NCBI GenBank assembly: GCA_013265495.1
Contig: MU057375.1
Coordinates: 53,226 to 73,225 of the forward strand
Direction: 5' to 3'
Length of the DNA stretch: 20,000 nucleotides
From: Vicugna vicugna
Taxonomy: Eukaryota
Numbering within the stretch: the stretch's first letter is position 1; each line of letters starts with the position of its first letter. Made by a program: the position numbers and the translations under genes. Under the pieces are notes generated by a model. It worked only from the letters and a program-made list of their open reading frames with translations, searched no databases and was not told the DNA's origin. This document shows positions 1 to 20,000 of this stretch, in pieces.

Positions 1-789
1 AGGATGAGTGTTAAGAGATAAGCATCTTGGAATGGTGAAGGACCCCACACCATTGAAGATGGAGAGAAAGGTGGTACTCAGGGCAGGAGGTGAGGTTTAC
101 TCAGGCCAAGAACTTCCAGAGGAATGCCAACCTGAGTCATAGCCCTCCAGGGCACAAACTAGTGGGATCCACTTCATCCAAACTAGAAATTGATAGAAGT
201 CCCCTCAAAACTGTGTTTGTCAGTTGACTTGTTAATATTTGAAAGAGGGTCTTGAGATTGGTCTCACTGTAATCATGCTACCTCTACCTAGCATAATAAA
301 TATCAAGAAGAAGTTCTAACTGGATTAGAATTATCACATGCCTACTTTACTAACATAATGCAGGGGTCCAAACAAGTGTCTTTGGGCAATCCCTGCCCCT
401 GTGGCTATTGATCTCAAGTCTGATCCCAAGAGGGTGAATATACTACCATGCTTCTGAGGTGGAGACAGTCCCCATAGGAACCAAGCTGTTACATAATGAA
501 ACCCACCCTTTATTTCATATCTCTCTACAACTGTTCAGCCAGTGCATGGTAGAATTTTCAGGGAATGAGAATGGAGACATGGAGTTTTGTAGAACCTGAG
601 TGGGGCATGTTTTACAATTCAAGACCCCTAAAATGGATTTCTTGTGGAAGTGCCTTTGTGTGAGCACTACACACACACTCAGCTGCACAGCTCAGCCTCC
701 TGCATGCCTTGTGATTTTTCTCTTTCTGCCCATGGGCCCCTCATCCTGGAAGTCACTGTGCCAGCCCATGCAGCTCCCTGCTGTTTCTC

Positions 790-961
790 CAAACCATGTT
801 CTCCTCTCACCTAGACTCCCCCTTCTCAACTGAGTCAGTCCCATCAGTCATTGCAAGAGTTGCCTCACTGCTCTCCAATCCTGCTCTGGACCCCTCTGCA
901 CAGCCTCCTCCCACATCTTTTCAAAGTAAAATTTTCCAGTGTCTTCCGTGGCAGGCAGCTT

Positions 962-1003
<42 letters not shown>

Positions 1004-1297
1004 TATTTTTCTTTGTCTTCTTGCCTTGGCTGGCTAACCAGCATTCAATACCTGAAAGCCTCCCTTCCTTCTCCCTTGGTAACCCCCACTTAGAACTGTC
1101 ACCTCTTCCAGGCAGCCATCCCCTGGCTCTCCATCCCAGGCTGGGTCACATCCCAGGATGTGCCTGTGCATATATGCCACTTGGGGTCCTTGATACATCT
1201 TTTAATGATCTGTTTAGGTGTCTGCCTCTCTTCTGAGTGGGGAGTTTCAGGAAAACCTCTCTTAATCTCTCACACCCAGCACATGGCCCTGATTAAA
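790..1297 (+). mobile_element. Ancient L2 3' fragment, interrupted by the (AC)n tract
   Basis: L2-like motifs: CTCTCACCTAGACT, TGTCACCTCTTCCAGGCAGCCATCCCCTG, TCTGTTTAGGTGTCTGCCTC and CCCAGCACATGGCCCTGA. Ends are approximate. Confidence 0.55.
965..1001. repeat. (AC)18 microsatellite
   Basis: Perfect dinucleotide run seen directly. Confidence 0.98.
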
Positions 1298-2520
1298 GCC
1301 TGGCCTTGGGGCCAGGCCAATGACAGTGTTAAGAGGTGCTCCTGGGCTTAGGGGAGCAGCTCCTCATAGGAGGCTCTGCTAGGTGGTCCCAGACCTAGTT
1401 TCTACGGAATCCCTGTTCAGGAAGGCTCAGCTCTCTCCCTGAAATCTTGGGTGTTGCCATGAGGAGCCCAGTCTTTCTTAAACTTATGAAGGTTTGGGGG
1501 GGTGAAGGTGGCTATGCATCAGGCTTGTTACCTCCTCCCAGGCTGGAGCCCAAACAGCTTAATGCTACATCTAGTGGTGGTAGCTGACTAGAGGCAGTCA
1601 TCCGGTGGTGGAGACAGCCCAGCTCTCTGCTGGCTACAAGATGCTAGCTCTCCACCTGGGCTCATGTGTAAAGGCTTCATGCAGTGTAGGAGTCTGAGCA
1701 TGCTGGCCCCTTGGAAGGCTCTTCATGTCCAGGCGCCAAGGTCAGGGATGCACTGGTTTCCAGCCATGAATTGGGCTTCAGAGTCTGAGCCTACTGCCTG
1801 AATCCAGGCTGAGCTGTGGGCAGAGGGATGGGGGATGGACACCCACCAAGGTCCATGGGGCCAGCTAGGGTTCAAGCCCACAGCCAAGGCTCTGCTCTGG
1901 AATGTTTGGCCATGGCGAGTCCCCCTTGACTCCCTGTCAGCCAAGGGAGGCTGAAGAGGGATTCAAGGAGGTGAGCTGCCCAACTGGAAAAATGTGAGGA
2001 GCTGACTTTCTGTGAAATAGACTGCACCAGGAGCTGACATGGAGTGAAAAAACATTTTATTCTATTGCCGCAAGGTGGTGTTTGCGCTCCGGGGTGCACT
2101 TGTCCTGCTTTTATCTCTTTTCTGCCTGCACATGCTGTGTTCATTTCTTTGTTCATGAGGCTTACATAACACCACTAGCTCATGGGTACTTCTACTTTAT
2201 TTTTTCTAAAACTTATATAAGTGCGTATGCATACAAACATCATTTACCTTATACTACAAGCATGTTGTTGTGGCCTTGGCCTTGAGTCCCACGACCTACT
2301 CATTCAAGGTCACTAACATTCCCCTTGTATCCCAATGCCTGGCTCAGTGTCCCTCCCCATCTTTCTCCCAGCTGTCCTTGGCCAGGCTCCATGAAGTGCT
2401 CTCTGCCCAGGGCACGGGGTCACGGCATGAGATACTCAGCAGCTGAGGTCAGCAGGCACCAGGGTCTCTAGGAACCTCTGAAATCAGTCCAAGGCCAATA
2501 CTTTTTTCATCCTCTTGTCC

Positions 2521-3127
2521 CTGGTGAACACGAGGAGTGAGGCCCCGGGCTGCCAAGTCTCTGAGCGCCGCAGCCCAGGCAGTTCTCTACCACCCTGCTG
2601 GCCTGCCTCCAAGCGTCCCTCCAGCTGGGAGTGAGGGGCACCCAGTGCCCTCTCTGAGCCATGAACAGGAGAGCACTACACGGCAAGGTTGAGACCCTGC
2701 AGTTACCCGGTTGAGAGGAGGGTAGAGGAAGGGAGTCAGGCAGGTATGGGAGGGGGCATCCTCCACAGTTTGCTCCTCATGGGGGCTCAGACACACAGTG
2801 ACCCTGGAGCCACTGTGCCTGCCCAGGCTGCTGCTGCCACAACCTCTGCTGCCTCCAAACAAGCTTCCTGAGCCATGGGAAGTGCCCCCACTGCACTGGC
2901 CTGGGCTTGGGCTGCCAACAATGCTACAGCCACAACCAGAGTAGGAGCAGGGGCCTGACAGCTGGACTGGGCTGGGATGGGGTGGGCGCACGACACAGAG
3001 GTTGGCATGCAGGGGAAGATGCACTGATGGCCTTGGCTCTCCAGGGGAGCAGCCTGGGACTGCACCCAAACCTGCGCCTCCCCATTCGGTGCTGCCCTTG
3101 GCACACACCCGGGGGACATGCAAGCAC
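2521..3127 (+). promoter_or_regulatory. Fossil (deaminated) CpG-island promoter/5'UTR of the GRID1 copy
   Basis: GC-rich but CpG-poor: manual count of 16 CpG in 2521-3480 and none in 2761-2940. TG/CA-rich runs such as GCTGCTGCTGCCACAACC resemble decayed (GCC)n. It lies directly upstream of the exon. Boundaries are approximate. Confidence 0.7.
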
Positions 3128-3206
3128 CTGGAAGAGCTAATGCTGTGGCTTCTACCCTTGATATGCCAATGCATGTCGGTGCAGGCCAACTCCATCATCC
3201 ACATCG
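3128..3206 (+). pseudogene. GRID1: Degenerate copy of GRID1 (glutamate receptor ionotropic delta-1) coding exon 1: signal peptide and start of the N-terminal domain
   Basis: Translates as LEELMLWLLPLICQCMSVQANSIIHI(G). The human GRID1 N-terminus, as recalled, is [27 protein letters not shown], giving 20/27 identity. The start codon position reads CTG (3128-3130). The segment is 79 nt and ends in phase 1 at a donor-like G|GTGAAT (3207-3212). It lies within ORF-track entry 3002..3232. Confidence 0.92.
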
Positions 3207-3797
3207 GTGAATGTGGAGGGCAGTGGGGCTGAGGCTGGGTGGAGGCCCCAGTGGCTCACCCGGTGTGCAGAGTCCAAACATGGCTGTTCCCTGGGCTGAG
3301 GGGCTCAGCAGGTGGTTCTCCCCCAAAGGGCTGTGCCACACTGCCTGGCAGAGGAGATGTGCATGGGCCATGCTGCTGTCCCACTGGTTCTCACTGTTTC
3401 CCAGGATTCAAATCCCCACTCGGGGCCCTGAAGCCTCTGCCACCACATAGGGCCCAGGCTTTGAGGAACCTCTGGCTAGACGCACCTCCAGACCTGTGCC
3501 CCTGGCAGGGCTGTTGGCTGGATAGAACTAGCCCTTACCTTCAGTTAGAGCAGCGTGGGATGGGGGCAGACAGGACCTGGGGTTTCCCCAACTTGGCAGG
3601 GCAGGATCAAAGTGTCACATGCTGCTATGCATGAATGTATGTCAGTGGGTGTTTTCAGCATGTCACTGTGTACATGCCTGGCACCGTGTTGGTGTCACTG
3701 CAAGAAGGTGTTGGGGTGCGTGGGGCCATCAGAGCCTGTGTTGGTGTACACACTAGTGTCAGCATTTTAGAGTGGACAGTGTCTGCCTGTTTCCCTG

Positions 3798-3820
3798 GTG
3801 TGTGTGTGTGTATCTCTCAA

Positions 3821-3852
<32 letters not shown>

Positions 3853-3856
3853 TGTA
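3798..3856. repeat. Interrupted (TG)n microsatellite
   Basis: TG runs at 3799-3810 and 3821-3844 plus a degenerate tail. Confidence 0.95.
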
Positions 3857-3992
3857 TCTGTTTGTGGCAACAACAGCCCAATCCTGGACAGGACAGTCCC
3901 AGAGTTTCCCAAGGCCCAAATGTTGGGGGCAGGCAGATGGTCTGGGTGGTGGGAGCCAGGGGAGAAGCCTGAGTAGTGATGTGTTAGGGGAA

Positions 3993-4006
3993 TGTGTGTG
4001 TGTGTG
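3993..4006. repeat. (TG)7 microsatellite
   Basis: Seen directly. Confidence 0.85.
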
Positions 4007-4668
4007 GAGGAGATGAGCAGGATGAGACCAATGGACAGAGAACCAGGAGAGGAAAGAAGAGGAGAGGAGGAGGGGGCCTGGGGATAAGAAGTGTGGGGGA
4101 GTTGGTAACAGCAAGGGAGAAAACCCAGAAAGTTGGGTTGGGTTGGGGGACTAACAATGGTTGCTTTAGGGGAGCTCCTCTGCAGTAGCTTTTCAGGAAG
4201 TTGGGAAAGACCAGCAAGCCCAGAGAAACTGGGGGTTGGGAGCTATGAGAAGGCAGGAATGATGGGACTGATCAGGCAGGGGTGTGAGGGGCTAGGGGTG
4301 TGCTTGGTGTGCTGCAATCCCCAGGAAGAGACCAGGGCCAAGTCTGATTCCCAGTGGTGGGTGGTGGTGGCTCGGGTCTTGAGATCAGCCTCATGGCTCT
4401 GGGTATAGCATGGAAGGGGATCCCCCTCCTCCTGCCCAGCAGCCAGGTCCGGGGGTCATTGGGTCCAGCCCTGGGACTGTGGTGAACCTCATGGCCTGAA
4501 GAGGAGGGAGAAGTCTGGAGTTGTCCAGGCTGCACAGCCAGGCTCTGATGAGTCTGACTGATCTCAGGTGGAAGTGCACAGAGTCTGCCAAGGTGGTGCT
4601 AAGAATGCAAAGGGCCAGCTGGAGGCCATCCTGGAGGAGCTGTTCATGGTTTAAGAGCAGCACATTCT

Positions 4669-6315
4669 GAGGAGGGGCCAAGATGGCAGAGTAGAAGGAC
4701 ACTCATAGCTCAGCGTCTCCCACAAATACACCAAAGCTCACTTCCACGGACCCACCCAGCCAACCGGAGCACCTGCTGAACTCCAACAGAACATCGCCCT
4801 CTTCAAAAGACAAAGACACCACGAATCTGGTAGGAGAATAGGAAAAAAGAAAGAAGAAAAAGCAAAACAGTGCAGACCAGTCCTGTGGGGAGGAAGTAAC
4901 AAAGGAGGAATAACGCTTGTTCACTGGGCCTCTCCCTCTCCAATGGAGAGGTCAGCAGGAAGGAAGGGGAACCTCCGAGGCTTGGATCTGTACAGATCAG
5001 AACTAAGTTAAATGGGCACAGAGGGTCTCTGCTACTCCCAGCCCTAGAGGCAAAGTGGCAGGTGGGGGACAGGACAGGCTACCTGAGCCAGGAAGAGGAC
5101 TGGGGCAGTTGCACTGAGACATCCCCAGGGGAATGCAGGGTGCTATGCGCTGTGGATGAGTGGGTACACAGGGCAGAAAAACCTGGGCCCTCCATAAAAC
5201 AACATGGCTGATGTGCCCTGGGGGGGAAGGGTGTATACCCCCATCTCTGAAAACCCACGGAAAGTTTTCAGGGGAAGAGAGGCAGGCCTTGGGCACAGCC
5301 GCCATATCCTCCAGTGCTTAGCATCCAGGTGGGGGCGGGAGCAAAACCTGCATCTGCACCGAAGGGCTTAGCAGCCTCAAAGGCCAGATGGAGACTTGTC
5401 TACAGCCCAAGGCAGATAGAATCCTTCCATCCTGGTCCCTCAGAGAACTTGCTCCACCAAGACAAACAAGGAGCTGTGTTTTGGCCTGGAGCAAGGACAA
5501 GGCTGTTCCTCGGTCTTCCCGGAGCCCACCTGTGGAGCCCCAACCTGAGGCGGAGCACGCAATGGCACAGAGCAGCAGAGCGACAGGCGCCAGGAGAGGG
5601 AGGGTGGCCTCCCGCCCTTCAGGCAGGAACACAGCCCCTGGCCATGGTGCTGGGAGGGGGCGCGACCCGTCCTCCTACCTGGCCAGTCTGCAACATTTGA
5701 CTGCGGCAACAGGAGGGGCAGTGACCCGCCCGCCCACAGCAAAGGAGAGCTACACCTGACCCAGTGTTGGGAGAAGATGCGATCTGCTTGCCGACAGGCA
5801 CTGGGGGCAGCAAAGTTGAGGGCAACAACGGAGGACCTCTGGAAACAGCAAGCTGAGCTTCCAAAACAGGACAAAGACAGAAAGACTTCACACTAAAAGC
5901 ACACAGACTCCAGGAGAACACCGACCCCCCTTTTTTTAAATCTGTTTTTACCTGTTCTATTTTCTATTACCCTCTTAATTTTTACTTCTTAATTCATTTT
6001 TATTTCTCTTGGGTTTTGATGTCCTGTTATTGATTAGACACAGGTTTCAAATACATCTTTTCACTTTTTACCCTTTTTAAAAAGATTTTAAAAGGATGTC
6101 TCAACCCGATTGATATTCTGCTTCAACTCGCTCTTCTATTATTCATTATACACTGTTTTCAAACCTTTTTTCTCCCTTCTTTTAAAATCATTCTCTCTCT
6201 CTCTTTTTTTTTCTTTTTTTCCTAAGTCTTATTCCTAAATAGGCATTAGATAGATAAACTCCTTAAGGACCACAATAGATAACTGATACTCCATAAAGCA
6301 CAGTGCCAGAGAGGT
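4669..6315 (+). promoter_or_regulatory. L1 5'UTR/internal Pol II promoter with a YY1-like site
   Basis: CCAAGATGGC at 4678-4687 is the YY1 core typical of L1 5' ends. A GC-rich, CpG-containing block spans about 5500-5830 and a T-rich block spans about 5930-6230 before the ORF1 ATG. Confidence 0.85.
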
Positions 6316-7217
6316 ATGAGCAAGATGAAGAAGCAGAGAAACCATTCCCAATTAAAAGAACAAGAGAAATCCCCTGAAAGAAAGATCAATGAAAAAGACA
6401 TCGATAACCTACTAGATCAAGATTTCAAAAAAGGAGTGATCAAAGTGCTGAAGGAATTAAAAGAGATAGTGTTTAGAGGTATAAATATATCAAAAATGAA
6501 ATTGAGGCTATAAAGAAGAGCCAAGTAGAATGGGTAAACTCATTGACTGAGATGAGGAATGATCTAATAGCTGTGCTAAGCTGACTAGATAATGCAGTGG
6601 AATGAATTAGTGACCTAGAAGACAGGACAATAGAAAGCACCCAATCAGAAGAGCTACAAGAGAAACAAATAAAAAATAGTGAAAATAGCATAAAGAGGCA
6701 TATATGGGGTAATATAAAGTGTGCCAATCTACACATAATAGGGATCCCAGAAGGGGAAGAAAGATCAAAGGGGATTGAAAAGGTTTTTGAAGAAATCATG
6801 ACTGAAAACTTCCCAAACTTAAAGAAAGAATAGGATATCCAAGTACAGGAAGCTCAGAGGGTCCCAAACAAGAAGAACCCAAATAGACCCACACCAAAAC
6901 ATATAATCAAGATGGCCAGAGTCAAGGATAAAGAAATGATTCTAAAGGCAGCAAGAGAAAAGCAAAAAGTAAGTTACAAGGGAACCCCCATAAGGCTCTC
7001 AGCTGATTTTTCTACACAAACACTACAGGCCAGAAGGGAGTGGCAAGATATATTCAAAGTCCTGAATGAAAAAAAGATGCAGCCTAGGATACTTTATCCA
7101 GCAAGGCTATCCTTTAGGATAGAAGGAGAGATAAAGAGTTTCACAGAGAAGAAAAAGCTGCAGGAGTTTAGCAACACTAAACCCATGCTAAAAGAAATAT
7201 TGAAAGGTCTATTCTAA
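6316..7217 (+). pseudogene. L1 ORF1p (coiled-coil, RRM, CTD RNA-binding protein), disrupted
   Basis: Runs from MSKMKKQRNHSQLKEQ to ...ARREWQDIFKVLNEKKMQPRILYPARLSF. There is a frameshift near 6480-6490 and in-frame stops TGA 6582, TGA 6603 and TAG 6831. Confidence 0.95.
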
Positions 7218-7617
7218 ATAGAAAAGCAGCAGGATGCTATAGAAATGAGAAACTCACAACTGGAAAGGTGTTAACTAATGAATTACAAATAAAATAAACA
7301 TGAAATTATAAAAGAAGACATGCAAATCATTGAGAGTGGGAGAGGGAGGCAGGGAAATATAGAAGATTTTTTTTCTTTCTTTTAAAAAATTTTTTATCGG
7401 TAGGATGGTTTTGAGATCATGTTACTATCAGTTTAATAAAAACAGTTATAGTAATGGGCTAATAGATTTACGAAAAAGGGTAACCACAAGCCAAAACTTA
7501 CAAGGGAGTCACAAAAATTAAAATCCATGATAATACAAAGGAAAATTACCAAACCACAAAAGGAAGAAGAAAGGGACAAAGAGGAAATACCAAATCAACA
7601 GCAGAAATAAGTTCAAA

Positions 7618-10600
7618 ATGGCAATAAACACACATCTATCATTAATTACTGTAAATTTTAATGGACTAAATGCTCCAGTCAAAAGACATAGAGTGGCAGA
7701 CTGGATAACAAAGCAAGAACCTTCAATATGCTGCATATAAGAGACCCACTTTAGGGAGAAGGACATATACAGATTGAGAGTGAAAGGATGGAAAAGGATA
7801 TTCCATGCAAATGGAAAAGCCAAAAAAGCAGGTGTTGCAGTACTGATTTCAGACAAAATAGACTTTAAAACAAAGGCCATAAAGAAAGATAAAGAAGGAC
7901 ATTTTATAATGATTGAAGGAGTGATACAAGATGAGGATATTACACTCGTCAATATATATGCACCCAATATAGGAGCACCTAAGTACATAAAACAATTACT
8001 AACAGAGATAAAGGAGGATATTGATGGGAATACAATCATAGTTGGAGATTTTAACACTGCATTAACATCACTGGGCAGATCTTCCAGACAGAAAATAAAG
8101 CAACAGAGAAATTAAATAATACAATAAAAAACCTAGATTTGGTGGATATTTTCAGAGCATTACACCCACAAAAAATAGGGTATACATTCTTTTCAAGTGC
8201 ACATGGAACATTTTCCAGGATTGATCATGTACTTGGGCACAAAAGAAGCCTCAACAACTTTAAGAAGATAGAAATTATCTCAAGCATCTTTACTCACCAC
8301 AATGCCACAAAACTAGAAATCAACAACAGAGAAACAAAGGAGAAAAAAAGAAAAGCATGGAGATTAAACAATATGTTATTGAAAAAACAATGGATCAATG
8401 AGGAAATCAAAGCTGAAATTAAAAAATACCTTGAGACAAATGATAATGAAAGCACAACCACTCAAAACCTATGGAAAAAAAGAAGAACAATCTCAAACAA
8501 TTTAACCCACTAGCTGAATGAATTAGAAAAAGAAGAACAAAAAGCCCCAAAAGGCAGCAGAGGGAAGGCAATTATAAAGATCAGGGAGGAAATAAATACA
8601 ATAGAGATTAACAAGACCACAGAAAAGATCAACCGAACCAAAAGCTGTTTTTTTGAAAAAGTAAATAAAATTGATAACCCTCTGGCAAAACTCACAAACA
8701 AGAAAAAAGACAGCACAAATTAGCAAAATAAGAAAGAAAAATGGAGAAATTACAGCAAATAAAATAGAAATACAGAATACCATACGAGAATATTATGAAA
8801 AACTATATGGAACAAAAATGGATAACCTAGAGGAGATGGACAAGTTTCTGGAAACATACTGTCCACCAAGACTGAATCAGGGAGAAACTGACCACTTGAA
8901 CAATCTGATCACTAGAAAGGAAATAGAAACAGCAATTAAAAACCTCCCTACAAATAAAAGTCCAGGGCTGGACCACTTCACCAGGGAATTCTACCAAACA
9001 CACAAAGAAGAACTCATACCAGTCCTTCTCGAACTCTTCCAGACGATTGAAAAGGAGGGAATACTCCCAAATTCATTCTATGAAGCCACCATCACCCTGA
9101 TACCAAAACCAGGCAAAGACACTACCACAAAGGAGAATTATAGGCTAATATCACTGATGAACATGGATGCCAAAATCCTCACCAAAATATTAGCAAATAG
9201 AATCCAACAACACATAAAAAAGATTAGACATCATGACCAAGTGGGGTTCATCCCAGGGACACAAGGGTGGTTCAACATATGCAAATCAATCAAGGTAATA
9301 CATCACATCAACAAGAGAAAGGACAAAAACCCATGATCATCTCAATCGATGCAGAAAAAGCATTCGATAAAATTCAACACCTATTTATGATAAAAAACTC
9401 TCGCCAAAGTGGGTATAGAGGGAACATATCTCAACATAATAAAAGGTATATATGACAAACCTACAGCCAGCATAGTACTCAATGGTGAAAAACTCAAAAC
9501 CTTCCCACTAAAATCTGGGACAAGACAAGGATGCCCACTAACACCACTCCTATTCAACATAGTCCTGGAAGTCCTAGCCACGGCAACCAGGCAAGGGAGA
9601 GAAATAAAAGGTATCCAAATTGGAAAAGGAAAGGTAAAGGTGTCACTATATGCTGATGACATGTTACTATATATTGAAAACCCTAAAAGTTCCATACAAA
9701 AACTACTAGAGCTGGTTAAAGAATCCAGCAAAGTAGCAGGTCACAAGATTAATGTTCAAAAATCAGTTGCATTTTTTTACAGTAACGATGAATCAACAGA
9801 AAAAGAAAGTAAAGAAACAACCCTCTTTAAAATAGCATCCAAAGTAATAAAATACCTAGGAATAAATCTAACCAAGGAGGTGAAAGAATTATACACAGAA
9901 AACTATAAACCATTGATGAAGGAAATTAAAGAAGACTCTAAAAAATGGAAAGATATCCCATGCTCTTGGATTGGAAGAATAAATATTGTTAAAATGGTCA
10001 CAATGCCCAAGGCAATCTACAGATTTAATGCAATTCCGTTTCAAATCATACTGGACATATTTCACAGAACTAGAACAAATCATAATAAAATTTATATGGA
10101 ATGATCAAAAGACCTAGAATTGCCAAAGCATTACTGAAGAGAAAGAAAGAGGCGGGAGGAATAACTCTCCCAGACTTCAGACAATATAGAGCTACAGTCA
10201 TCAAGACAGCATGGTATTGGTACAAAAACAGACATATAGACCAATGGAACAGAATAGAGAGCCCAGAAATGAACCCACAAACTTTCGGTCAACTTATCTT
10301 CGACAAAGGAGGCAAGAATATACAATAGAATAAAGACAGTCTCTTCAGCAAATGATGTTGGGAAAACTGGACAGCAGCATGTAAAACAATGAAGCTAAAA
10401 CACTCCCTTACACCATATACAAAAATCAACTGAAAATGGATCAAAGACTTAAACACAAGACAAGATACAATAAAACTCCTAGAGGAAAACATAGGCAAAA
10501 CATTATCTGACATACATCTAAAAAATTTTCTCCTAGAAGAAATAAAAGCAAGAATAAACAAATGGGACTTAATGAAACTTACAAGCTTCTGAACAGCAAA

Positions 10601-11351
10601 GGAAACCATAAGTAAAACAAAAAGACAACCTACAGGATGGGAGAAAATTTTTTCAAATGAAAACAACAAAGGCTTGATCTCCAGAATATATAAGCAGCTC
10701 ATATGACTCAATAAGAAAAAAATAAACAACCTAATACAAAAATGGGCAGAAGATCTAAACAAGCAATTCTCCAAGGAAGACATACAAATGATCAAAAGGC
10801 ACATGAAAAAATGCTCAATATCACTAATTATCAGAGAAATGCAAATCAAAACTACAATAAGGTATCACCTCACTCCTGTCAGAATGGCTGTCATTCAAAA
10901 ATCCACAAATGACAAATGCTGGAGAGGCTATGGAGAAAGGGTAACTCTCCTTCACTGCTGGTGGGAATGTAGTTTGGTGCAGCCACTGTGGATAACAGTA
11001 TGGAGATTACTCAAAAGACTAGGAATAGACTTACCATATGACCCAGGAATCCCACCCCTGGGCATATATCCAGAAGGAACCCTACATCAAAATGACACCT
11101 GCACCCCAATGTTCATAAAAGCACTATTTATAATAGCCAAGACATGGTAACAGCCTAAATGTCCATCAACAGATGACTGGATAAAGAAGAAGTGGTATAT
11201 TTATACAGTAGAATACTATTCAGTCATAAAAATGACAATGTAACTCCATTTGCAGCAACATGGATGTTCCTGAAGAATGTCATTCTAAGTGAAGTAAGCC
11301 AGAAAGAGAAAGAAAAATACCATATGAGATTGCTTATATGTGGAATCTTAA
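7618..11351 (+). pseudogene. L1 ORF2p (APE endonuclease, reverse transcriptase, C-terminal CCHC), disrupted
   Basis: ATG 7618 begins MAINTHLSLITVNFNGLNAPVKR. EN motifs are NIYAPN, GDFN and SRIDH; RT motifs are QGCPL (~9526) and YADD (9649-9660). The zinc knuckle [18 protein letters not shown] (~10917-10970) has its second Cys changed to Tyr. Lesions include stop TAA 7738, further stops, frameshifts near 8100, 8700, 9330, 9400 and 10050, and a deletion near 8474. Confidence 0.96.
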
Positions 11352-11660
11352 AAAAAAAAAAAGAACATAAATACAAAACATAAGCAGATTTAAAGACATA
11401 GACTACATACTTGTGGTTGCCAGGGGTGAGGATGGGGGGAAGGGACAGACTGGGATTCAAAATTTGTAGATACTGACAGGCATATGTAGAATAGATAAAC
11501 AAGATTATACTGTATGTCACAGGGAAATATATACAAGATCTTGTGGTAGCTCCCAATGAAAATGAATGCAAAAATGAATATATGTATGTTCATGTATAAC
11601 TGAAAAATTGTGCTCTACACTGGAAATTGACACAGCATTGTGAACTGACTATAATTCAGT

Positions 11661-11697
11661 AAAAAAAAAAAAAAGAAAGAAAGAAAAAAAAAAGAAA
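11661..11697 (+). repeat. L1 poly(A) tail with GAAA interruptions
   Basis: A14 G AAA G AAA G A10 G AAA. The polyadenylation signal reads AGTAAA (11658-11663) rather than AATAAA. Confidence 0.93.
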
Positions 11698-12649
11698 TAC
11701 CAGCATAAGTCTCTTGTTTTCTTCTCCGGAGGTTGGCTGTGGTATTTGGTAAAAATTTTTTCCTTCAAGCCATAAATTCCACCCCAGTGAATGCGGTCTC
11801 TAATGTGACTCCACTTAAACTTGGCTGCCATGGTGAGGATGCTCTCTCTCTGCCTGAGAGGCACAGACACCATTCATCCAGGGCCAACTTTCCTCATGCA
11901 GTTCCTCACAGATCAGATAGGCACTGAGCATTCTCTCTTATTCTAAGGCAATCTGCAAAACCTAAGGCTTTGAGAAATTTAAGTCTCAGTTTTCCTTACT
12001 AGATGTTATTAACAAAGGCAAAGAAAGAATTACTCTGAGTGTTAACATCAGAAGTGTTTTTCAGTTCACCCACATGTACAGAGAGAACTAGATATTATTG
12101 TTATTGTTGCATCAGCATTTCACTGAGACAGTGATTTTCTTTACACTTTTGTTTAGTCATATAGGCAAACCTAAGTAGACAGTGATGTAGCAAGTAGGGG
12201 TGATAGCTGTGCAATGCTCCTTACAGGAAGGTAGGCTGTCATTTTGTCACATCAGCAGGTTCCACCTCATCTGGCTCTCTTCTCTTCTGTGACATGCATT
12301 CACATAAACAAATATTTGATTTTCACTCTTTCACTGGGTGCTAAGTTGCGCCCCTCTTCTGTGCCTGCCTGGGTGTATAAGTGGAAGTGTGCCTTGGCTT
12401 AGAGACCACATGAACATGTGTATTTTGAGTGTGTGAGTAAACTCATACAGTTTCAAAATCCTTTAGGATGCTAGGACTTATAAAAAGAAATCCAAAGAAA
12501 AATCCATGAACAAAATAGAAACTTGTTCTAACAAGTTAAGTCATAAACTTATAATTTTTAACTGTTTAATTTTATATTACATTTGCTTATAATAAGGAAT
12601 ATTGCTAGAAAAAAATTCCCATAACTTTCAATGATCTCAATTTCTTTCT

Positions 12650-12847
12650 CCTAAGGGCATTGGGGTTTGGTTAATGTTCACTAAGGGCTTCAAGTGTGGC
12701 TATACTATTTTATTTCTTAAAAAAGATACAAATCAATTATGATAAAATTTGTAAAATTTAAGAAAACTGGATGGTAAGTACATGGATATTTGTTATGTTA
12801 TTTTTTAAGTATTTTTTTCTGCTTGGAATATTTCACAATAAAATAAT
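12650..12847 (+). mobile_element. Ancient L1ME-type 3' end fragment
   Basis: AACTGGATGGTAAGTACATGGATATTTGTTATGTTATT...TTGGAATATTTCACAATAAAA resembles L1ME 3' termini as recalled. Confidence 0.7.
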
Positions 12848-15449
12848 GGAAATATACAAAGATGCTTAGATTATTCATGTTTTCCTCTTTTTCTGTTGCT
12901 ATAGAAAGTATTTATCTTTTCTGGAGTATTTAGAAAAAAACTTGGATCCCTATGGACAGTAGAGTGATCAAGAAATATGGAAAGTTACAGATGAGGTAAG
13001 GCTGGTAACTGAAATAATTTTGAAAAAGGTAGCTTGTACACACACGAGTGGACATCACAGCTGAGATGATTTGCCACACTTAACCTGTGTGCATGTGTAT
13101 GTACATAACTTTACAATGGAGAACTCTAATATCCATGGAGTACCCACTTCTTAGGATGAGACATACCCCTTCCCTCAGTGGTGAGTCTCCAACTACCAGG
13201 CCCCAGAGATTGCATGACTTTGGCCTTCTCCCCTAGCAGTGTGCATCAATGAGACATGAACTGGGAGAGACCCAGTAGCCAACATGTAGCACACCAGGAT
13301 TATTCCTGATCCATAGGCTTGTCTCTCCACACCGTCTCATTTTCTCCTTGTCCGGGTTCTGAGCTTTCCTAATACATGGCAGAGGCTTTAGTTTGAATTG
13401 ATCTACTCTCTGGGAAGCATAGGTTTAGCACAAAAGGATGGTGACTATTCTGGAGCACATGTAGATGGCTACAGTCTTCCGTAAAGTCACCAGGAGTCAA
13501 CTGTCTTCAGGGGTTATGGCTATAAGCACCTTCAGGCAAAACACCACATAACCTGGCTGTGGCCTACTTTATCCCTTGAGGTCATTAGGACATCGTATAT
13601 GAAATATGTCAATTAAAATGTAATCTAAATTCCTAACTCATACCCTATATTTACTCAACAGATGGTTCACTATAATTAAAGGCTTTATATGGAGGAATTT
13701 AGGGTTAGGAGAGACTGAGAATGGAAATCATAGTTTCCTTAACAGAACACCCTAGCTCTTAACTGATAATTCTTGAAATACAGGCATTATACTTAAGAGA
13801 ATGAGAACATAAATTATTCTGGTTTATTAAACTTGAGATTTAGGTCCAAAGCTGTGGATGATGGCAGACTACAATGATGGGAACTAAGTACATTGAGATT
13901 CAAAGGTCTTCTTAGAGAACAACTTTATTCCACCATTTCTGACATTTTTGGTCCTTGTTGTAAAGCCCAGTTCTGTTTATCCCAAATGCTCTTTCCTTTT
14001 CTGCCTCCCTTCAGAGTGGATCTTGCCAGGAGCTTTGAAACACCTGTGAGTGTGAAACACTTACCCACTGAGTGCCCAACCTTCATATGCCCCTAAAAAA
14101 ATGTACTTAGAGTAACCATTTTCATTATCAAAGTTTCCTTATTACTGAATAAACAAGGATTTTTAAAGAAAAAATTAACTAAACCACATGTGACACATTT
14201 TAAGATCTTTGATGTGACTTCAGAGAATTAACTATAGGAACACAATGTGGTGGGAGAGATACTTTGAAAGGAAGACATTAGACTTTAGGAAATCTGCAAG
14301 TATTGCCAAGTCACAGTAAAACTGATAGGAAATCAGAGTCATAAAAATAAGCTAAAATTTTAGAAGACATGTTAAGATTTTAAATATCAATATAATACAA
14401 ACATTTTTACCTGTTTATATTTCTGTTTGATCAACTCATATTTAGGTATATCTTTCTACTGATCCTTTTAAAAAAATATGCTGTTCACAAGCAGAGATGC
14501 TGTGGCTGTCCTTACATGAATGTCACATGTCTGAGTAGTATTGATATGTTTTTGTTGAGGAGGCCTGAGAATAGCATACAGACAAATAAGCAACACCCAG
14601 ACAAGCAGAAAAGGCATTGGTTTACAAGTGATGGGGCTTGAGCTTTAACCCTATTTGGTTAATCATAAAATTTGCCCAAACAGGACCTTTTGAGGGTGTC
14701 CTCAGTTTCTCAACTAGACATGATACTGGGAAGAAAGGTGTAAGCCAGAACTGTCAAGGGCAAACTGGGATTGAATGTCATCTCATCTTGTCCTCTCTGT
14801 GACCTTGGTGTGACTTGTTTCTCTAGAAGGAAATGAACTGAGTAATGCCAGGTAGTCAAACACCTGGGTCTTATCCCAACAGCGCCTTCTTCATAATTCC
14901 CCTTTGCCTGAAATGGAACTCAAAAGTGTACACAATGACAATTCCAGGCCAGGGGATTGTCCATTCCCACCTGGGATTTGGCCCCAGACTCCAGTGTGAA
15001 ATCATTTTTGTAGATGGGGATTGGATCTTGGCACTGGGTGCCTTATCATTCTATGGACGAATTTAAAGCAAGTGCAAGGGAAGGAAAGAGAGTTTCTGTC
15101 TAAGACCTAGAACTGAGAAGGGTTTATTTCCCCATCCTCAAGCCACTTATGGCCAGATAGCTTCTCCCCAGGAGCATTGACCACCAGTTGTGCAGACCAA
15201 AGAGAATTTCAAAAGGGGCTGAATCTTGAGGGAAAAAAATAGACCAATTAATAAATTGGTAAGGTTGTTGTAAATTTTCAGGCTAATATATATAATGGAC
15301 CCAGGTGAGGGCTGGCAAATAATAGGTAGTAAGTGAATGTGAGCTTTTATATTCACATTTTCATGTGGTCTTCACGTGGCCAGCTCTTAAATGTTGTTGT
15401 TTGACAGAGTCCTAATTATTGTCTTACTTATTCTTCCTGAGAAATTTCA

Positions 15450-16412
15450 TGCATCCTCTTAGCTCTAATTATTACCTCTATGCTGATGACTCCCAAATCC
15501 ACTGTTCCCAGTGCTCCTCACCTGACATCTCAGCATGGACAAGCACCTTCTGCCCATAAGTGAGTTTCTTACCTGCCCCAATCACACAGTTGTCCTGCAT
15601 CCCCAGTCCCAGCGAGTGGCACCACCAGCCCATAGTTGTCCAAAGCCAAGACCTAGGGCTTATCCTTGACTCCCACTTTCTCCACCTGTCTCCATATATC
15701 AAGACCTCTCAAGGCTGTCTCCTGCAAAAATCTTGAATGTATTCACTTTTCTCAACCCCCATCTCGCACCACTCCTAATTCTCATATGGATTTTTGAAAT
15801 AGGCTCCTGTCTGGTTTCCCTTTAATTGGCTCCCTAGAGTTCTTTCTACTCTTTGCAGCTTTGCATCTGATCCTTTGCTTCTCCCCTCCCAGAGCTCCTT
15901 ATTGACCTTTGGGCAAAGTCCACATTGCTTAAGGTGACTTATAAGGTCGCTTGTGATTTCATCTTTGCCTACTTCTCCAAACTCCCTCCCCAACCTTCCC
16001 CACTTATCAGGATCCAACTACACTGAATTTCTTTGGTTTCTCTAAGGCACATGTGCTGTCTGTTCTCCAGAGGCTTTTTCACATGCTCTATGCCTGGGAC
16101 CTCCTGCTAGCTCTTTACTGCCTGCTCCTCCTCCTCACCGAGTCCTCTCCTTACACACCCCTGCTCCCCAGAAACCTGCCCTGATCCTCCAGGTATGAGG
16201 AAGGAGCCCCTCCAAGGTTCCCATACCTCTACTCCTTTCACAGCTTTCCTTACATAGGAGAGAGATTTACCTGTTAACTTGTCCATGTTCCCCAGCAGAT
16301 TATAAGTTCCTCAAGGGCAGAGATGAGTCACTGTGGTATTTCCAGTCCTTAGAGTCACATTGGCCACATGGATGGTGTTCAATAAATATTGATCGATTGA
16401 ATGAGTGAATGA
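15450..16412 (+). mobile_element. LINE-2 3' portion
   Basis: RT relic TATGCTGATGACTCCCAAATC (YADDSQI, 15479-15499), AAGACCTAGGGCTTATCCTTGACTCC, and terminus TCAATAAATATTGATCGATTGAATGAGTGAATGA. Confidence 0.88.
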
Positions 16413-17276
16413 TTTTATTTGTTTATTGAAATGACTAAGTAAATGATTCAGGTGTGATGTATCAAGAAGATAGCCTTGTGATTGATGCACCACAGGTGCT
16501 ACCATTAGTAATGAGGGTGCTAAGCCTGGAGAAGTCTGAGGGACTTGGCGGAGGTTGGCGGTGGGTGTAGGAATAGCTGAGTCCCTCAACTATGATCATG
16601 AGCTGTCCCAGTGTAATCCAAGCAGCACAGCTGTTGGTTTCAGGATGGTTTAGAATGGTTTTAGAATGTATTAAGACTTTTTGGTAATTGTTTGCTTTTT
16701 AGATTACTTATAAAATAGATTCCTTTCTTACACATTGATAGTTGAATAAGTTATTTTAGATAGCAAGCTAAATACCAGAAATTGTGGCCTTTTAAGTTGA
16801 AAATTTGCACTGGAAAACCTGCAGAGTAGCAAAAGGCAAGTCTAAACGGGGTTGACAGAGTCTATGTCAATAGATTGCCAGTGGACTACTCAGTCCAAAC
16901 ACACTTCACTTCTCCGATTTTTCTTTTTCAGAAGAAAATGCCTGGTCTTTTAAAGGCTGTTATACATTTTTCAGTTTCATGTGTCACAAAACAAAATATC
17001 TTCTTTGTAAATAGCAGTTGGGAAGTACATACGATTTAGTAGCTCAGCTGTATAAAGCGGGCAAATTCTTTTGTCCTAAAGTTCTTTATAGGCACAAATT
17101 TTTGATGCTTTGATTTATTTTTAAAGCCAAGTTGGAATGAAAATAACTAGAAACATTTAGAGTCTAGTAATTTTTAATTCACCTTAGTTTGGCCATAGCT
17201 AAGCTAAAGTTTGTATTTATTTTTAATCTATTGAAAAATGATTTGTGGTAATAGTGTAAATCACATTATATTGGGA

Positions 17277-17326
17277 ATATATGTGTATATATATATATGT
17301 ATATAAATATATATACACATATATAT
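17277..17326. repeat. (TA)n-rich simple repeat
   Basis: ATATATGTGTATATATATATATGTATATAAATATATATACACATATATAT seen directly. Confidence 0.9.
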
Positions 17327-17436
17327 TTATTTTTAAATAATTCTGCTGTTAAAGATCACTGAAGTAGATGATCTCTATAGCAAGTTCCCTTTTGGTCTCC
17401 CCCCAACTCCAGCACATTTCTCTTTGAACAGTAATT

Positions 17437-17577
17437 TCCCATTTATTATTTTTCTCCCCCTCTGAACCATGAGTTCCTTCAAGGAAGGACCCAGTATTAT
17501 TCACCTTTGAATTCCCTGGTCTGGTATTGTACCTAGAATTTAATAAACTCTCATTAGTCTGTTAAGGAATACATGAT
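17437..17577 (+). mobile_element. L2 3'-end fragment
   Basis: CTCTGAACCATGAGTTCCTTCAAGGAAGGACCCAGTATTATTCACCTTTGAATTCCCTGG matches the L2 terminal pattern. Confidence 0.7.
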
Positions 17578-17676
17578 GAAGCATCCAAACAATCACAAGG
17601 TTAGTTTAAGCCCTTCTTATCAGCACATGAAGTTGGTAACAAGAGCTTTGTATCTTTTAAAAAAAACAATTACTAA

Positions 17677-17756
17677 TCTGTCTTGCTTCCCATTTGCTCT
17701 CCAAAGCCTATCACAATGTCTGGCAGAAAATAGGTAATTAATATATTTGTTAAATA
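17677..17756 (+). mobile_element. L2 3'-end fragment
   Basis: TCTCCAAAGCCTATCACAATGTCTGGCAGAAAATAGGTAATTAATATATTTGTTAAAT. Confidence 0.7.
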
Positions 17757-18330
17757 TTCACTGACTTCAAATTTAAAGTTTTACTAACTTATCTTCACCT
17801 TTCTCTAATGAATATGATTTTAAAATGTTTTTACTATATCTGCAATGAGTAAAATAATGAGATAGGAATGTGGCAAAATGCATCCTAGACTGGTCTGTCT
17901 CACTGTCATATTTTTACATTTTTGTTCTCTAAATATTGACAGTACTATATGCTTAGGGACTTAATTATTTACATGTGTTAAGAAATAGAGTCATTTGGGT
18001 AAAAACCACATGCTTTGCTCAGCTCTTTATCACAGGGAAGTACAAAATATAACATCTAAAGTCACTTTCCCAGTGCGGCCTTGAGGAAATTATGGTACAA
18101 TTGGTGTGAATCAAAAAAAGCTGTAACATCCTTACCAAACTCTCAGCCTTGTACCTAGGGGCATGATGTGAATAACTAGTATTGCAATACTTCCTGCTAA
18201 CTTACTTTACAAGGTGACTTGTAGTGGGAAAATATTACAAATCTTATTGCCACACTAGGGAAGGGTTTCAGTGACCAGGCCCATGTTTTGGGATTTCCCA
18301 GGCTTCAACAATACTAAGAGTTAGGGTGGA

Positions 18331-18545
18331 TTAGGTACTTAATACGTGCTACACTCTGTGGCAAGCTCTTTCCACAAATTATCTCATTTAATCCTCACTA
18401 CAAGCCTTTGGATTCTATACCATTATTTTCCCCATTTTTTTCCAGAGAGGTAAGTGAGACTTACAGTCATACACCTGACATCATCAGCAAATGAGTGGTG
18501 GAGTGTAGATTGAAAGCACTTCTGTGTAACTTGCGAGCTTTTATC
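18331..18545 (-). mobile_element. MIR SINE
   Basis: ATTATCTCATTTAATCCTCACTACAAGCCT...ATTATTTTCCCCATTTTTTCCAGAGAGGTAAGTGAGAC is the MIR core in antisense. Confidence 0.8.
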
Positions 18546-18664
18546 AGTACTTTTCTTGATGCTTAGTTTGAATTAAAATTCTGAAGTATTTCTTATTGAT
18601 CTGAAATGAAATAGTGACATCTCTATCAGTGTCAAAGAACTTATTTATCATTTATTTGTAAGGG

Positions 18665-18760
18665 ATTTTATAGTCTTAAAGATGAGAAATCAGAGGCACA
18701 CAGACAGGCAAAGTGACTTCCCTTAGATCACAGGCTATACTGGCAGAGCTTAAACCAGCA
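18665..18760 (-). mobile_element. MIR SINE core fragment
   Basis: TTAAAGATGAGAAATCAGAGGCACACAGACAGGCAAAGTGACTTCCCTTAGATCACAGG. Confidence 0.75.
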
Positions 18761-18829
18761 CTATTCATTTACCATTTGTCATTCTTCCTTAAATTTGGGT
18801 TTATTTATCATTCATCCAAACTGTGTTTG

Positions 18830-18889
18830 TTTTGCTTGGCCAGCATTCTAGGAGCTCAATATGTATTTGTTGAACAAATGAATGAATGT
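18830..18889 (+). mobile_element. L2 extreme 3' end
   Basis: TAGGAGCTCAATATGTATTTGTTGAACAAATGAATGAATG. Confidence 0.7.
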
Positions 18890-18904
18890 GTTAAGGCTGA
18901 CAAT

Positions 18905-19780
18905 ATGTCCTATATTGGCACTGAACTAAAGAGCATGTCTTTACCCTCAGGAAGCTGACAGTCTAGCAGGGGAACTTGCACAAATGCTTCCATGATCATG
19001 TGCCTGACTGCCCTAAAGGATGTTCAGTATTCAGAAGGGTATGCCAGGCAAAGCAATGGCACAGACCTGAGAAGGTCAAGGTGGACAGGGAACTACACAC
19101 TGTGTGTTGAGTGCTGCTGGAAGTAAAAGTGAAGGGGGTTGATTCTGGATGCCTTGTATGCTACATGAGAGAGTTCACTTATTCTGTTGGGAGGAGAGCC
19201 ACCATAGCATTTAAAACAGAGAAATTATATGGTCAAATCTATATTTTAGAAGGACCCCTGGGTGGTTGTGCAGTGAATCAACAAATCAACCACTTGGGAT
19301 TTATAGTCTAAAGCTAGAGAGATAATTGTGACCTGGACTAGTGCTGTTGTAATAAGGTTAGCAAGGAGGAGGAGGATTTAAGAAGTATTTAGAAGAGGTC
19401 CAGGGCTAGAGATAAAGAAGAAAAATCATTAGCTTATCAGTGGTAGTGGATACCCTAAGAATGAATGAGAGCTCAGCAGGAGAGTTTGGAGAGTTGGGAA
19501 TGAGGAAAGCTGATATTCAAGGGACAGGAAGAGGGGTGTTAAACTCCACATGATCATAGGAAGAAATAGTCATAGAGGGTGTGGTTTCTGATAAGCCAAG
19601 GAATAGGTGTTTGAAGAAGGAAAAAGTCTATAGTCTCAGCAGTGGAGACAATAGATAAACACTCATTATTCAGGATTTCTAGATGACAAAGGGGTGAGAT
19701 AGTAAATAACAGCTTAAGGAGAACCTGGAGGCAAGCGAGGGATTTTATTTTTGTTTTAAGAGGGGGAAGACTGTAGCAAG
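18905..19780 (-). mobile_element. Degraded LINE-2, antisense
   Basis: Purine-rich, with antisense L2 motifs CCCTCAGGAAGCTGACAGTCTAGCAGGGG, GGATGCCTTGTATGCTACATGAGAGAGTT, TATATTTTAGAAGGACCCCTG and GACCTGGACTAG. Ends are approximate. Confidence 0.7.
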
Positions 19781-20000
19781 GACACAGGCTGAAGCCAATA
19801 AGAAGCAGAGGTTGAAGACAGAGAAAACGTAAGTCCTCTGACTCCTCACCCAAGAGTTCTTATTCACAGTCTCAGCTGCCTGGAACCAAAATTAGTTTTA
19901 TGTTTGAGTCTTCTAGGATACATCAGAGTAGTCCCCCTTGTCTAATAATGTTCACATTTCCTACCATCTCAGAAACTCTTTTCAAACACTAATGAATTCT

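Follow-up and report, generated by a model that had tools for sequence, protein, structure and literature searches.

A full-length L1 retrotransposon whose two ends carry no matching target-site duplication (TSD) raises the question of whether it marks a genuine breakpoint between two loci and, if so, by what route the two became joined. Such an element lies in the stretch of Vicugna vicugna DNA analysed here, the window, which comprises 20,000 nucleotides and forms the last 20 kb of contig MU057375.1 (73,225 bp; here C40) in an assembly of 2.03 Gb and 12,405 pieces (GCA_013265495.1). All comparisons of the flanks and of the L1 were made with paralogs and copies inside this one genome assembly. 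On that basis the L1 appears to be the exact junction of two unrelated sequences, a truncated low-copy repeat (LCR) unit on its left and a segmental duplication on its right, with each end bearing its own hallmark of target-primed reverse transcription (TPRT), from a different locus. We regard it as about evenly balanced whether the element is a chimera produced by ectopic recombination between two L1s of the same subfamily. The features on which the argument rests, with their strand, are:

1..4669, forward strand: truncated copy of a GC-rich LCR unit; the unit measures at least 11 kb and is tandem in C40
4650..4669, forward strand: L1-endonuclease-type site TTT/AAGA with a putative 17-nt orphan 5' TSD half (4653-4669)
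4670/4671-11697, forward strand: L1, 7.0 kb, delimited by Pfam domains, tail and copy comparison
4670..6282, forward strand: L1 5' untranslated region (UTR), about 1.6 kb, GC 0.53-0.56, delimited by the 5' ends of copies
6283..7217, forward strand: L1 ORF1 remnant, its frame broken by a stop and by frame changes
7363..11150, forward strand: L1 ORF2 remnant (endonuclease and reverse transcriptase), from Pfam and the frame map
11151..11697, forward strand: L1 3' UTR and A-rich tail, the tail being 37 nt long at 11661-11697
11692..20000, forward strand: second copy of the single-copy locus C3193:9048750-9057029 (segmental duplication), from BLAST

The two ends of the L1 and the paralogs of its flanks

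The original prediction, made from the letters of the window alone, described a full-length L1, and the element is full-length in extent, with a poly(A) tail and a 5' end that matches those of other copies. Domains of ORF1 (Tnp_22_dsRBD, E 5.6e-25, and Transposase_22, E 7.1e-14, at 6834-7217), of the endonuclease (Exo_endo_phos, 7741-8115) and of the reverse transcriptase (RVT_1, 8665-9336 and 9394-10104, overall 8665-10104) were identified with Pfam in the order expected of an L1. Alignments start at window positions 4668-4680 in 37 of 39 other genomic L1 copies, and the L1 5' ends compared at 14 loci all begin at the motif GGAGGAGGCCAAGATGG. The 3' end can be aligned to other copies up to about 11660-11698, and the tail has the composition A14 GAAA GAAA G A10 GAAA. 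The copy is dead, because no open frame exceeds 236 amino acids and ORF2 is split across two frames into many stop-to-stop pieces.

The paralogs of each flank lose homology exactly at the ends of the L1, and the flanks derive from two different loci, the LCR family on the left and the C3193 locus on the right. They also differ in composition as first described, the left being GC-rich (0.54-0.62 over 2501-4500) and the right AT-rich (GC 0.27-0.48).

On the left, window positions 4200-4669 match eight further places in the genome at 80-82% identity, and the LCR unit as a whole has at least eight other copies at 72-85% identity (about 9-10 copies), located mostly on small contigs (C40, C827, C2951, C6141, C2714, C4856, C5868, C9390, C11084 and C7854). 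The flank is collinear with C827:170000-178359 and C2951:150999-140978 until exactly 4669, where collinearity stops. All seven other LCR copies that align across 4669 run on uninterrupted where the window enters the L1, and those on C827 and C2951 can be aligned for 1.5 kb past the breakpoint and again beyond an insertion, a continuation of at least 1.5-3.7 kb. Because these other copies continue past 4669, we read the left flank as a truncated copy of an old (15-28% diverged), apparently non-coding LCR unit of at least 11 kb. The possibility that the flank is part of an L1 5' UTR or a 5' transduction was rejected, as the eight other copies do not lead into an L1.

The bases immediately ahead of the L1 (4650-4669) read TTT/AAGAGCAGCACATTCTG, confirming the endonuclease-type site that had been reported there. 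TTTAAGA is present in six of the seven other LCR copies and is thus ancestral to the LCR family. The GC-rich 2.35 kb at 2321-4669 contain a single TTAA, placed 17 nt ahead of the L1, and 17 nt is a normal TSD length. The chance of finding TTAAAA or TTAAGA 7-20 nt upstream of a random position is 0.0043 when judged from the local sequence, 0.0058 from the entire left flank and 0.0083 from the C40 repeat units, or 0.004-0.034 if a bare TTAA is accepted; the test was defined after the site had been seen and these figures are somewhat generous. The 5' joint may include an overlap of 1-3 nt (G/GA) at 4669-4671.

On the right, window positions 11698-12400 have exactly one other match in the genome (two copies in total), on the 11.4-Mb contig C3193. 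From 11692 to the end of C40 the two copies align as one block of 8,409 columns at 89.3% identity (BLAST), with 8.2% substitutions (672/8174; non-CpG 7.3%) and 66 gap events, and the duplication extends for at least a further 2.5 kb on contig C4119, to at least 10.8 kb in all. Homology of the C3193 type begins within the L1 tail or at its end, the window reading AAGAAATACCAGCATAAGTCT at 11692-11712, which agrees with the sequence originally noted after the tail. At the breakpoint C3193 reads GCAGATT/AAAAAATACCAGCATG and the L1 is absent there; it serves as an empty site with a textbook L1 endonuclease target (TT/AAAA), namely TT/AAAAAATACC (TT/AAAAAA). Sites of TT followed by at least four A occur at 0.0008-0.0013 per position, yet 13-33% of A-runs, according to their length, follow TT. 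The 1.2 kb of C3193 upstream of this point is single-copy in the genome, with no second copy, and the 21 kb upstream have no C40 counterpart beyond scattered 62-77% matches to sequence that is repeated in C40.

No matching TSD of 7-20 bp links the two flanks, in agreement with the original prediction. Their best local match is at chance level, its score being reached by 1807 of 5000 shuffles and by 1816 of 5000 random flank pairs. A degraded TSD was considered and rejected, since the shared AAGA, CAGCA and TCT are at chance level and the letters of each flank are inherited from its own paralog family.

Routes to the junction

The reading that we favour, at about even confidence, takes as parents two like-oriented L1 copies from a single subfamily. 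L1-A, a full-length element, would have inserted by ordinary TPRT at TTT/AAGAGCAGCACATTCTG in an LCR copy, and L1-B at TT/AAAAAATACC in a duplicated copy of the C3193 locus. An unequal (non-allelic) homologous crossover within the L1 sequence shared by the two would then have eliminated the 3' portion of L1-A and the remaining LCR unit behind it, the DNA between the elements, and the 5' portion of L1-B together with the flank upstream of it. The product would be a full-length-looking L1 with the 5' TSD half of L1-A and the 3' target of L1-B. We infer, rather than observe, that there were probably two elements and that they were probably joined by recombination and not by some other repair route.

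The halves that such a crossover would discard were sought in the assembly, as were the reciprocal junctions that the original prediction had proposed as a check. All eight LCR continuations belong to eight already known loci, leaving no orphan, and an L1 5' start preceded by AATACCAGC has no match in the genome. The 17-mer has 720 matches with up to two mismatches, compared with 57 in the reversed control, and its one other exact copy among the 100 of these 720 matches that were listed has no A-tail before it and is unrelated. The missing halves are thus absent from the assembly, which is consistent with deletion by L1-L1 recombination. Three other full-length copies, at 89-90% identity, are collinear with the element from end to end. 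Informative sites group the window with these relatives 101 times (L043), 26 times (L045) and 20 times (L046), and the pattern shared with L043 occurs in every kb bin, as would be expected of two parents from a single subfamily. Private non-CpG divergence of the L1 in its ORFs is 3.2% (123/3811, an upper bound) and half the divergence of the duplication is 3.7% (7.3%/2); as the former is not above the latter, insertion of the L1 after the duplication is possible.

Several observations weigh against recombination. The switch in diagnostic sites that had been proposed as a test did not appear: no change of informative-site pattern was found along the L1 in a comparison of low power with only three full-length relatives, of which two share 97-99.6% identity in ORF2, and a change-point in private substitutions was not significant against the same three, its statistic being attained in 110 of 500 shuffles. 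Two parents from one subfamily can recombine without any visible switch resulting. The closeness of 3.2% to the per-lineage 3.7% is predicted outright by an origin in a single event, the recombination reading needs a duplication, two insertions and a crossover, and an assembler paralog switch lies close by, where the end of C40 meets C4119.

A single retrotransposition could have made the junction if priming took place at a C3193-type TT/AAAAAA and the far end of the cDNA was joined to a distant break in the LCR, either as an L1-mediated deletion or as an unbalanced translocation from which the duplication arose. This would account for the absence of a TSD, for a 3' junction with poly(A) and a canonical endonuclease site, and for an L1 that looks like one coherent copy; its duplication form gains support because the private divergence of the L1 nearly equals the per-lineage divergence of the duplication, and the mechanism is documented in tumours in the available portion of bioRxiv 10.1101/179705. 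We nevertheless consider it unlikely, as the 17-nt distance between the 5' joint and the only TTAA in 2.35 kb would then be fortuitous (p 0.004-0.034), and insertion-mediated deletions in the primate germline are small, with 50 events and about 33 kb in total in the part of PMC3543922 that was accessible. Its more specific version, in which one germline L1 event bridged both loci and created the duplication, with priming at the C3193 locus of one chromatid, the cDNA end being captured by a break in the LCR array and the derivative inherited beside an intact C3193, seems quite unlikely. The spacing and the 5' endonuclease site are accounted for, as is the coherence of the L1, if an L1 inserted normally into the LCR, generating a 17-nt TSD, and its poly(A) tail was afterwards broken by an unrelated deletion or a duplicative transposition and joined by microhomology to a C3193-type A-run, at the cost of the 3' TSD and the remainder of the LCR unit. 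The joint is A-rich in both partners, and TT ahead of an A-run is not rare at the 13-33% given above. The breakpoint must then fall in a tail of 37 nt, however, whereas recombination has up to 7 kb of homology at its disposal; the TT/AAAAAA of the partner becomes coincidental (0.13-0.33); and had the duplication made the joint, the L1 should predate the duplication, while 3.2% (an upper bound) against 3.7% leans slightly in the opposite direction. A break in the tail accordingly strikes us as improbable.

Both endonuclease sites, the single coherent L1 and the equal age of L1 and duplication would also be explained by a 3' transduction, in which a source L1 beside C3193-type sequence was read through and its transcript inserted at the TTT/AAGA of the LCR. 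This is nearly excluded: the carried segment would reach a minimum of 8.3 kb as far as the end of C40 and, counting C4119, a minimum of 10.8 kb, five AATAAA and four ATTAAA plus-strand signals would have to be passed, the source L1 is absent at C3193:9048750, downstream in C3193 no poly(A) is followed by a second copy of the upstream sequence, and the assembly has neither a terminal TSD nor an orphan LCR continuation. Also rejected was the idea that the C3193 copy is an orphan 3' transduction with the window L1 as its source, since four downstream A-runs of at least eight have no repeat of the upstream sequence and the segment is too long. Finally, the two-ended signature is what an assembly chimera would show, if two real and separate L1 insertions, one in an LCR copy and one in a C3193-type copy, had been fused via a shared stretch. 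C40 is small (73 kb) and ends 8.3 kb past the L1, exact runs of 159 and 144 nt are common to the L1 and other copies, and a paralog switch can be demonstrated at the contig end. There, the last 1,416 bases of C4119 (24497-25912 of 25,912 bp) are 100% identical to C3193, and the adjoining 21955-24496 only 90%, continuing the C40-type paralog; the change falls within about 130 nt that do not differ between the paralogs, right at the end of C40 (window 19956-20000; C4119:24380-25912; C3193:9055614-9057150), and is likely an assembly paralog switch and less likely a real recombinant haplotype. Fusion within the L1 is itself of low probability in our estimation: neither of the left-over products, an L1 3' part with TSD and LCR continuation and a C3193-type upstream copy with an L1 5' part, is found in the assembly, 257 private substitutions at 5471 comparable sites are spread along the L1, which speaks against a collapsed average, and the window contains no N. 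Twenty public runs from eight studies contain 57-62% of the words sampled from 3200-13100, shares that are silent on the junctions.

The original proposal of a hybrid of two insertions at a breakpoint therefore stands in part. The junction of unrelated sequences is supported and recombination between two L1s is its best fit, at the even confidence stated above; the accompanying claim that the left flank is a fragment of GRID1 is not. None of the 26 left-flank ORFs, of the 12 six-frame read-throughs of both flanks or of the 67 ORFs of C40:30001-53225 has a Pfam match, and none of the 29 genome matches to Lig_chan lies on C40, C3193 or the LCR contigs, an outcome that covers coding similarity and contig location, with an intronic origin outside its reach. 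A gene or an endogenous retrovirus as the source of the left flank was rejected on the same Pfam results for the left-flank and C40 ORFs and the read-through frames.

Other features of the contig and of related L1 copies

The LCR copy in the window contains three smaller repeats:

965-1001: (AC)18 microsatellite
1934-2320: interspersed repeat of about 385 bp, with more than 30 genomic copies at 74-87% identity
3798-3866: imperfect (GT)34 microsatellite

The repeat at 1934-2320 is missing at the same point in other copies of the LCR unit. LCR homology covers the whole left flank and reaches about another 18 kb back into C40 (C40:27069-57894), where the unit is present twice in tandem. An Rfam search of the window gave no matches. 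Upstream of the window C40 has a gap, a run of 946 N at C40:10608-11553 that may be a scaffold gap. C40 also carries an inverted 2.8-kb L1 3' fragment (C40:23234-26003), 30 kb upstream and 85% identical to window positions 8900-11697, and several further L1 pieces.

Two of the full-length relatives, L045 (C11356:9210650-9217750) and L046 (C10588:336650-343800), are 97-99.6% identical in ORF2, 89-95% in the 5' UTR and the start of ORF1, and about 92% in the 3' UTR; the pattern could stem from gene conversion, from swapped ends in a very young lineage, or from mixing in the assembly. On contig C3703 two L1 5' ends (205662-206593 and 216838-217769; L020 and L021) lie 11.2 kb apart behind identical upstream flanks, and this pair represents a tandem duplication encompassing a full-length L1.

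Relation to known L1-associated rearrangements

Deletions mediated by L1 retrotransposition have reportedly been described by Gilbert et al. in 2002 and by Han et al. in 2005, both cited in PMC3543922. Segmental duplications bounded by repeats, with Alu-rich boundaries, are also known. The right junction resembles these in that the duplicated segment ends exactly in the A-rich tail of an interspersed repeat; unlike them, the repeat in the window is a full-length L1 and not an Alu, and the parental site is empty and carries TT/AAAA.

For the human lineage, 73 L1 recombination deletions of 56-64,113 bp are given in the available text of PMC3543922, which puts the DNA removed by L1 recombination at about 25 times that removed by L1 insertion-mediated deletions. 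As far as that text describes L1 recombination-associated deletions (L1RAD; Han et al., 2008, via PMC3543922), the locus shares with them a single L1 whose flanks come from two insertion sites, a TSD mismatch, loss of the intervening sequence and parents of one subfamily. It differs from them in that we infer the two-element ancestor here and that one flank is itself a segmental duplication, the boundary of which meets the L1. In tumours, the accessible portion of Rodriguez-Martin et al. (bioRxiv 10.1101/179705) lists 90 L1-mediated deletions of 0.5 kb to 53 Mb without TSD, 74 of the 90 with a 3' endonuclease motif, and describes L1-bridged translocations and duplications as well. The absent TSD, the poly(A), the 3' endonuclease-type site and the L1 bridge are shared with such rearrangements in that description, whereas a 5' joint one TSD length after an endonuclease-type site, as seen here, is not predicted by their mechanism. 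Unlike the tumour events, which in the same portion of the source are mostly truncated, the L1 of the window is germline-fixed, old and full-length.

The event is of an ordinary, known type, since L1-L1 recombination, deletions mediated by L1 and duplications bounded by repeats are each well documented, and the locus adds one more case of L1-associated structural change while flagging a fragile local assembly. If it were true, the single-event reading would make this a fixed evolutionary case of the L1-bridged unbalanced translocation or duplication, documented mainly in tumours. More broadly, within-genome paralogs can take the place of a missing outgroup, here indicating that an L1 without a TSD marks what appears to be a real breakpoint between an LCR array and a segmental duplication.

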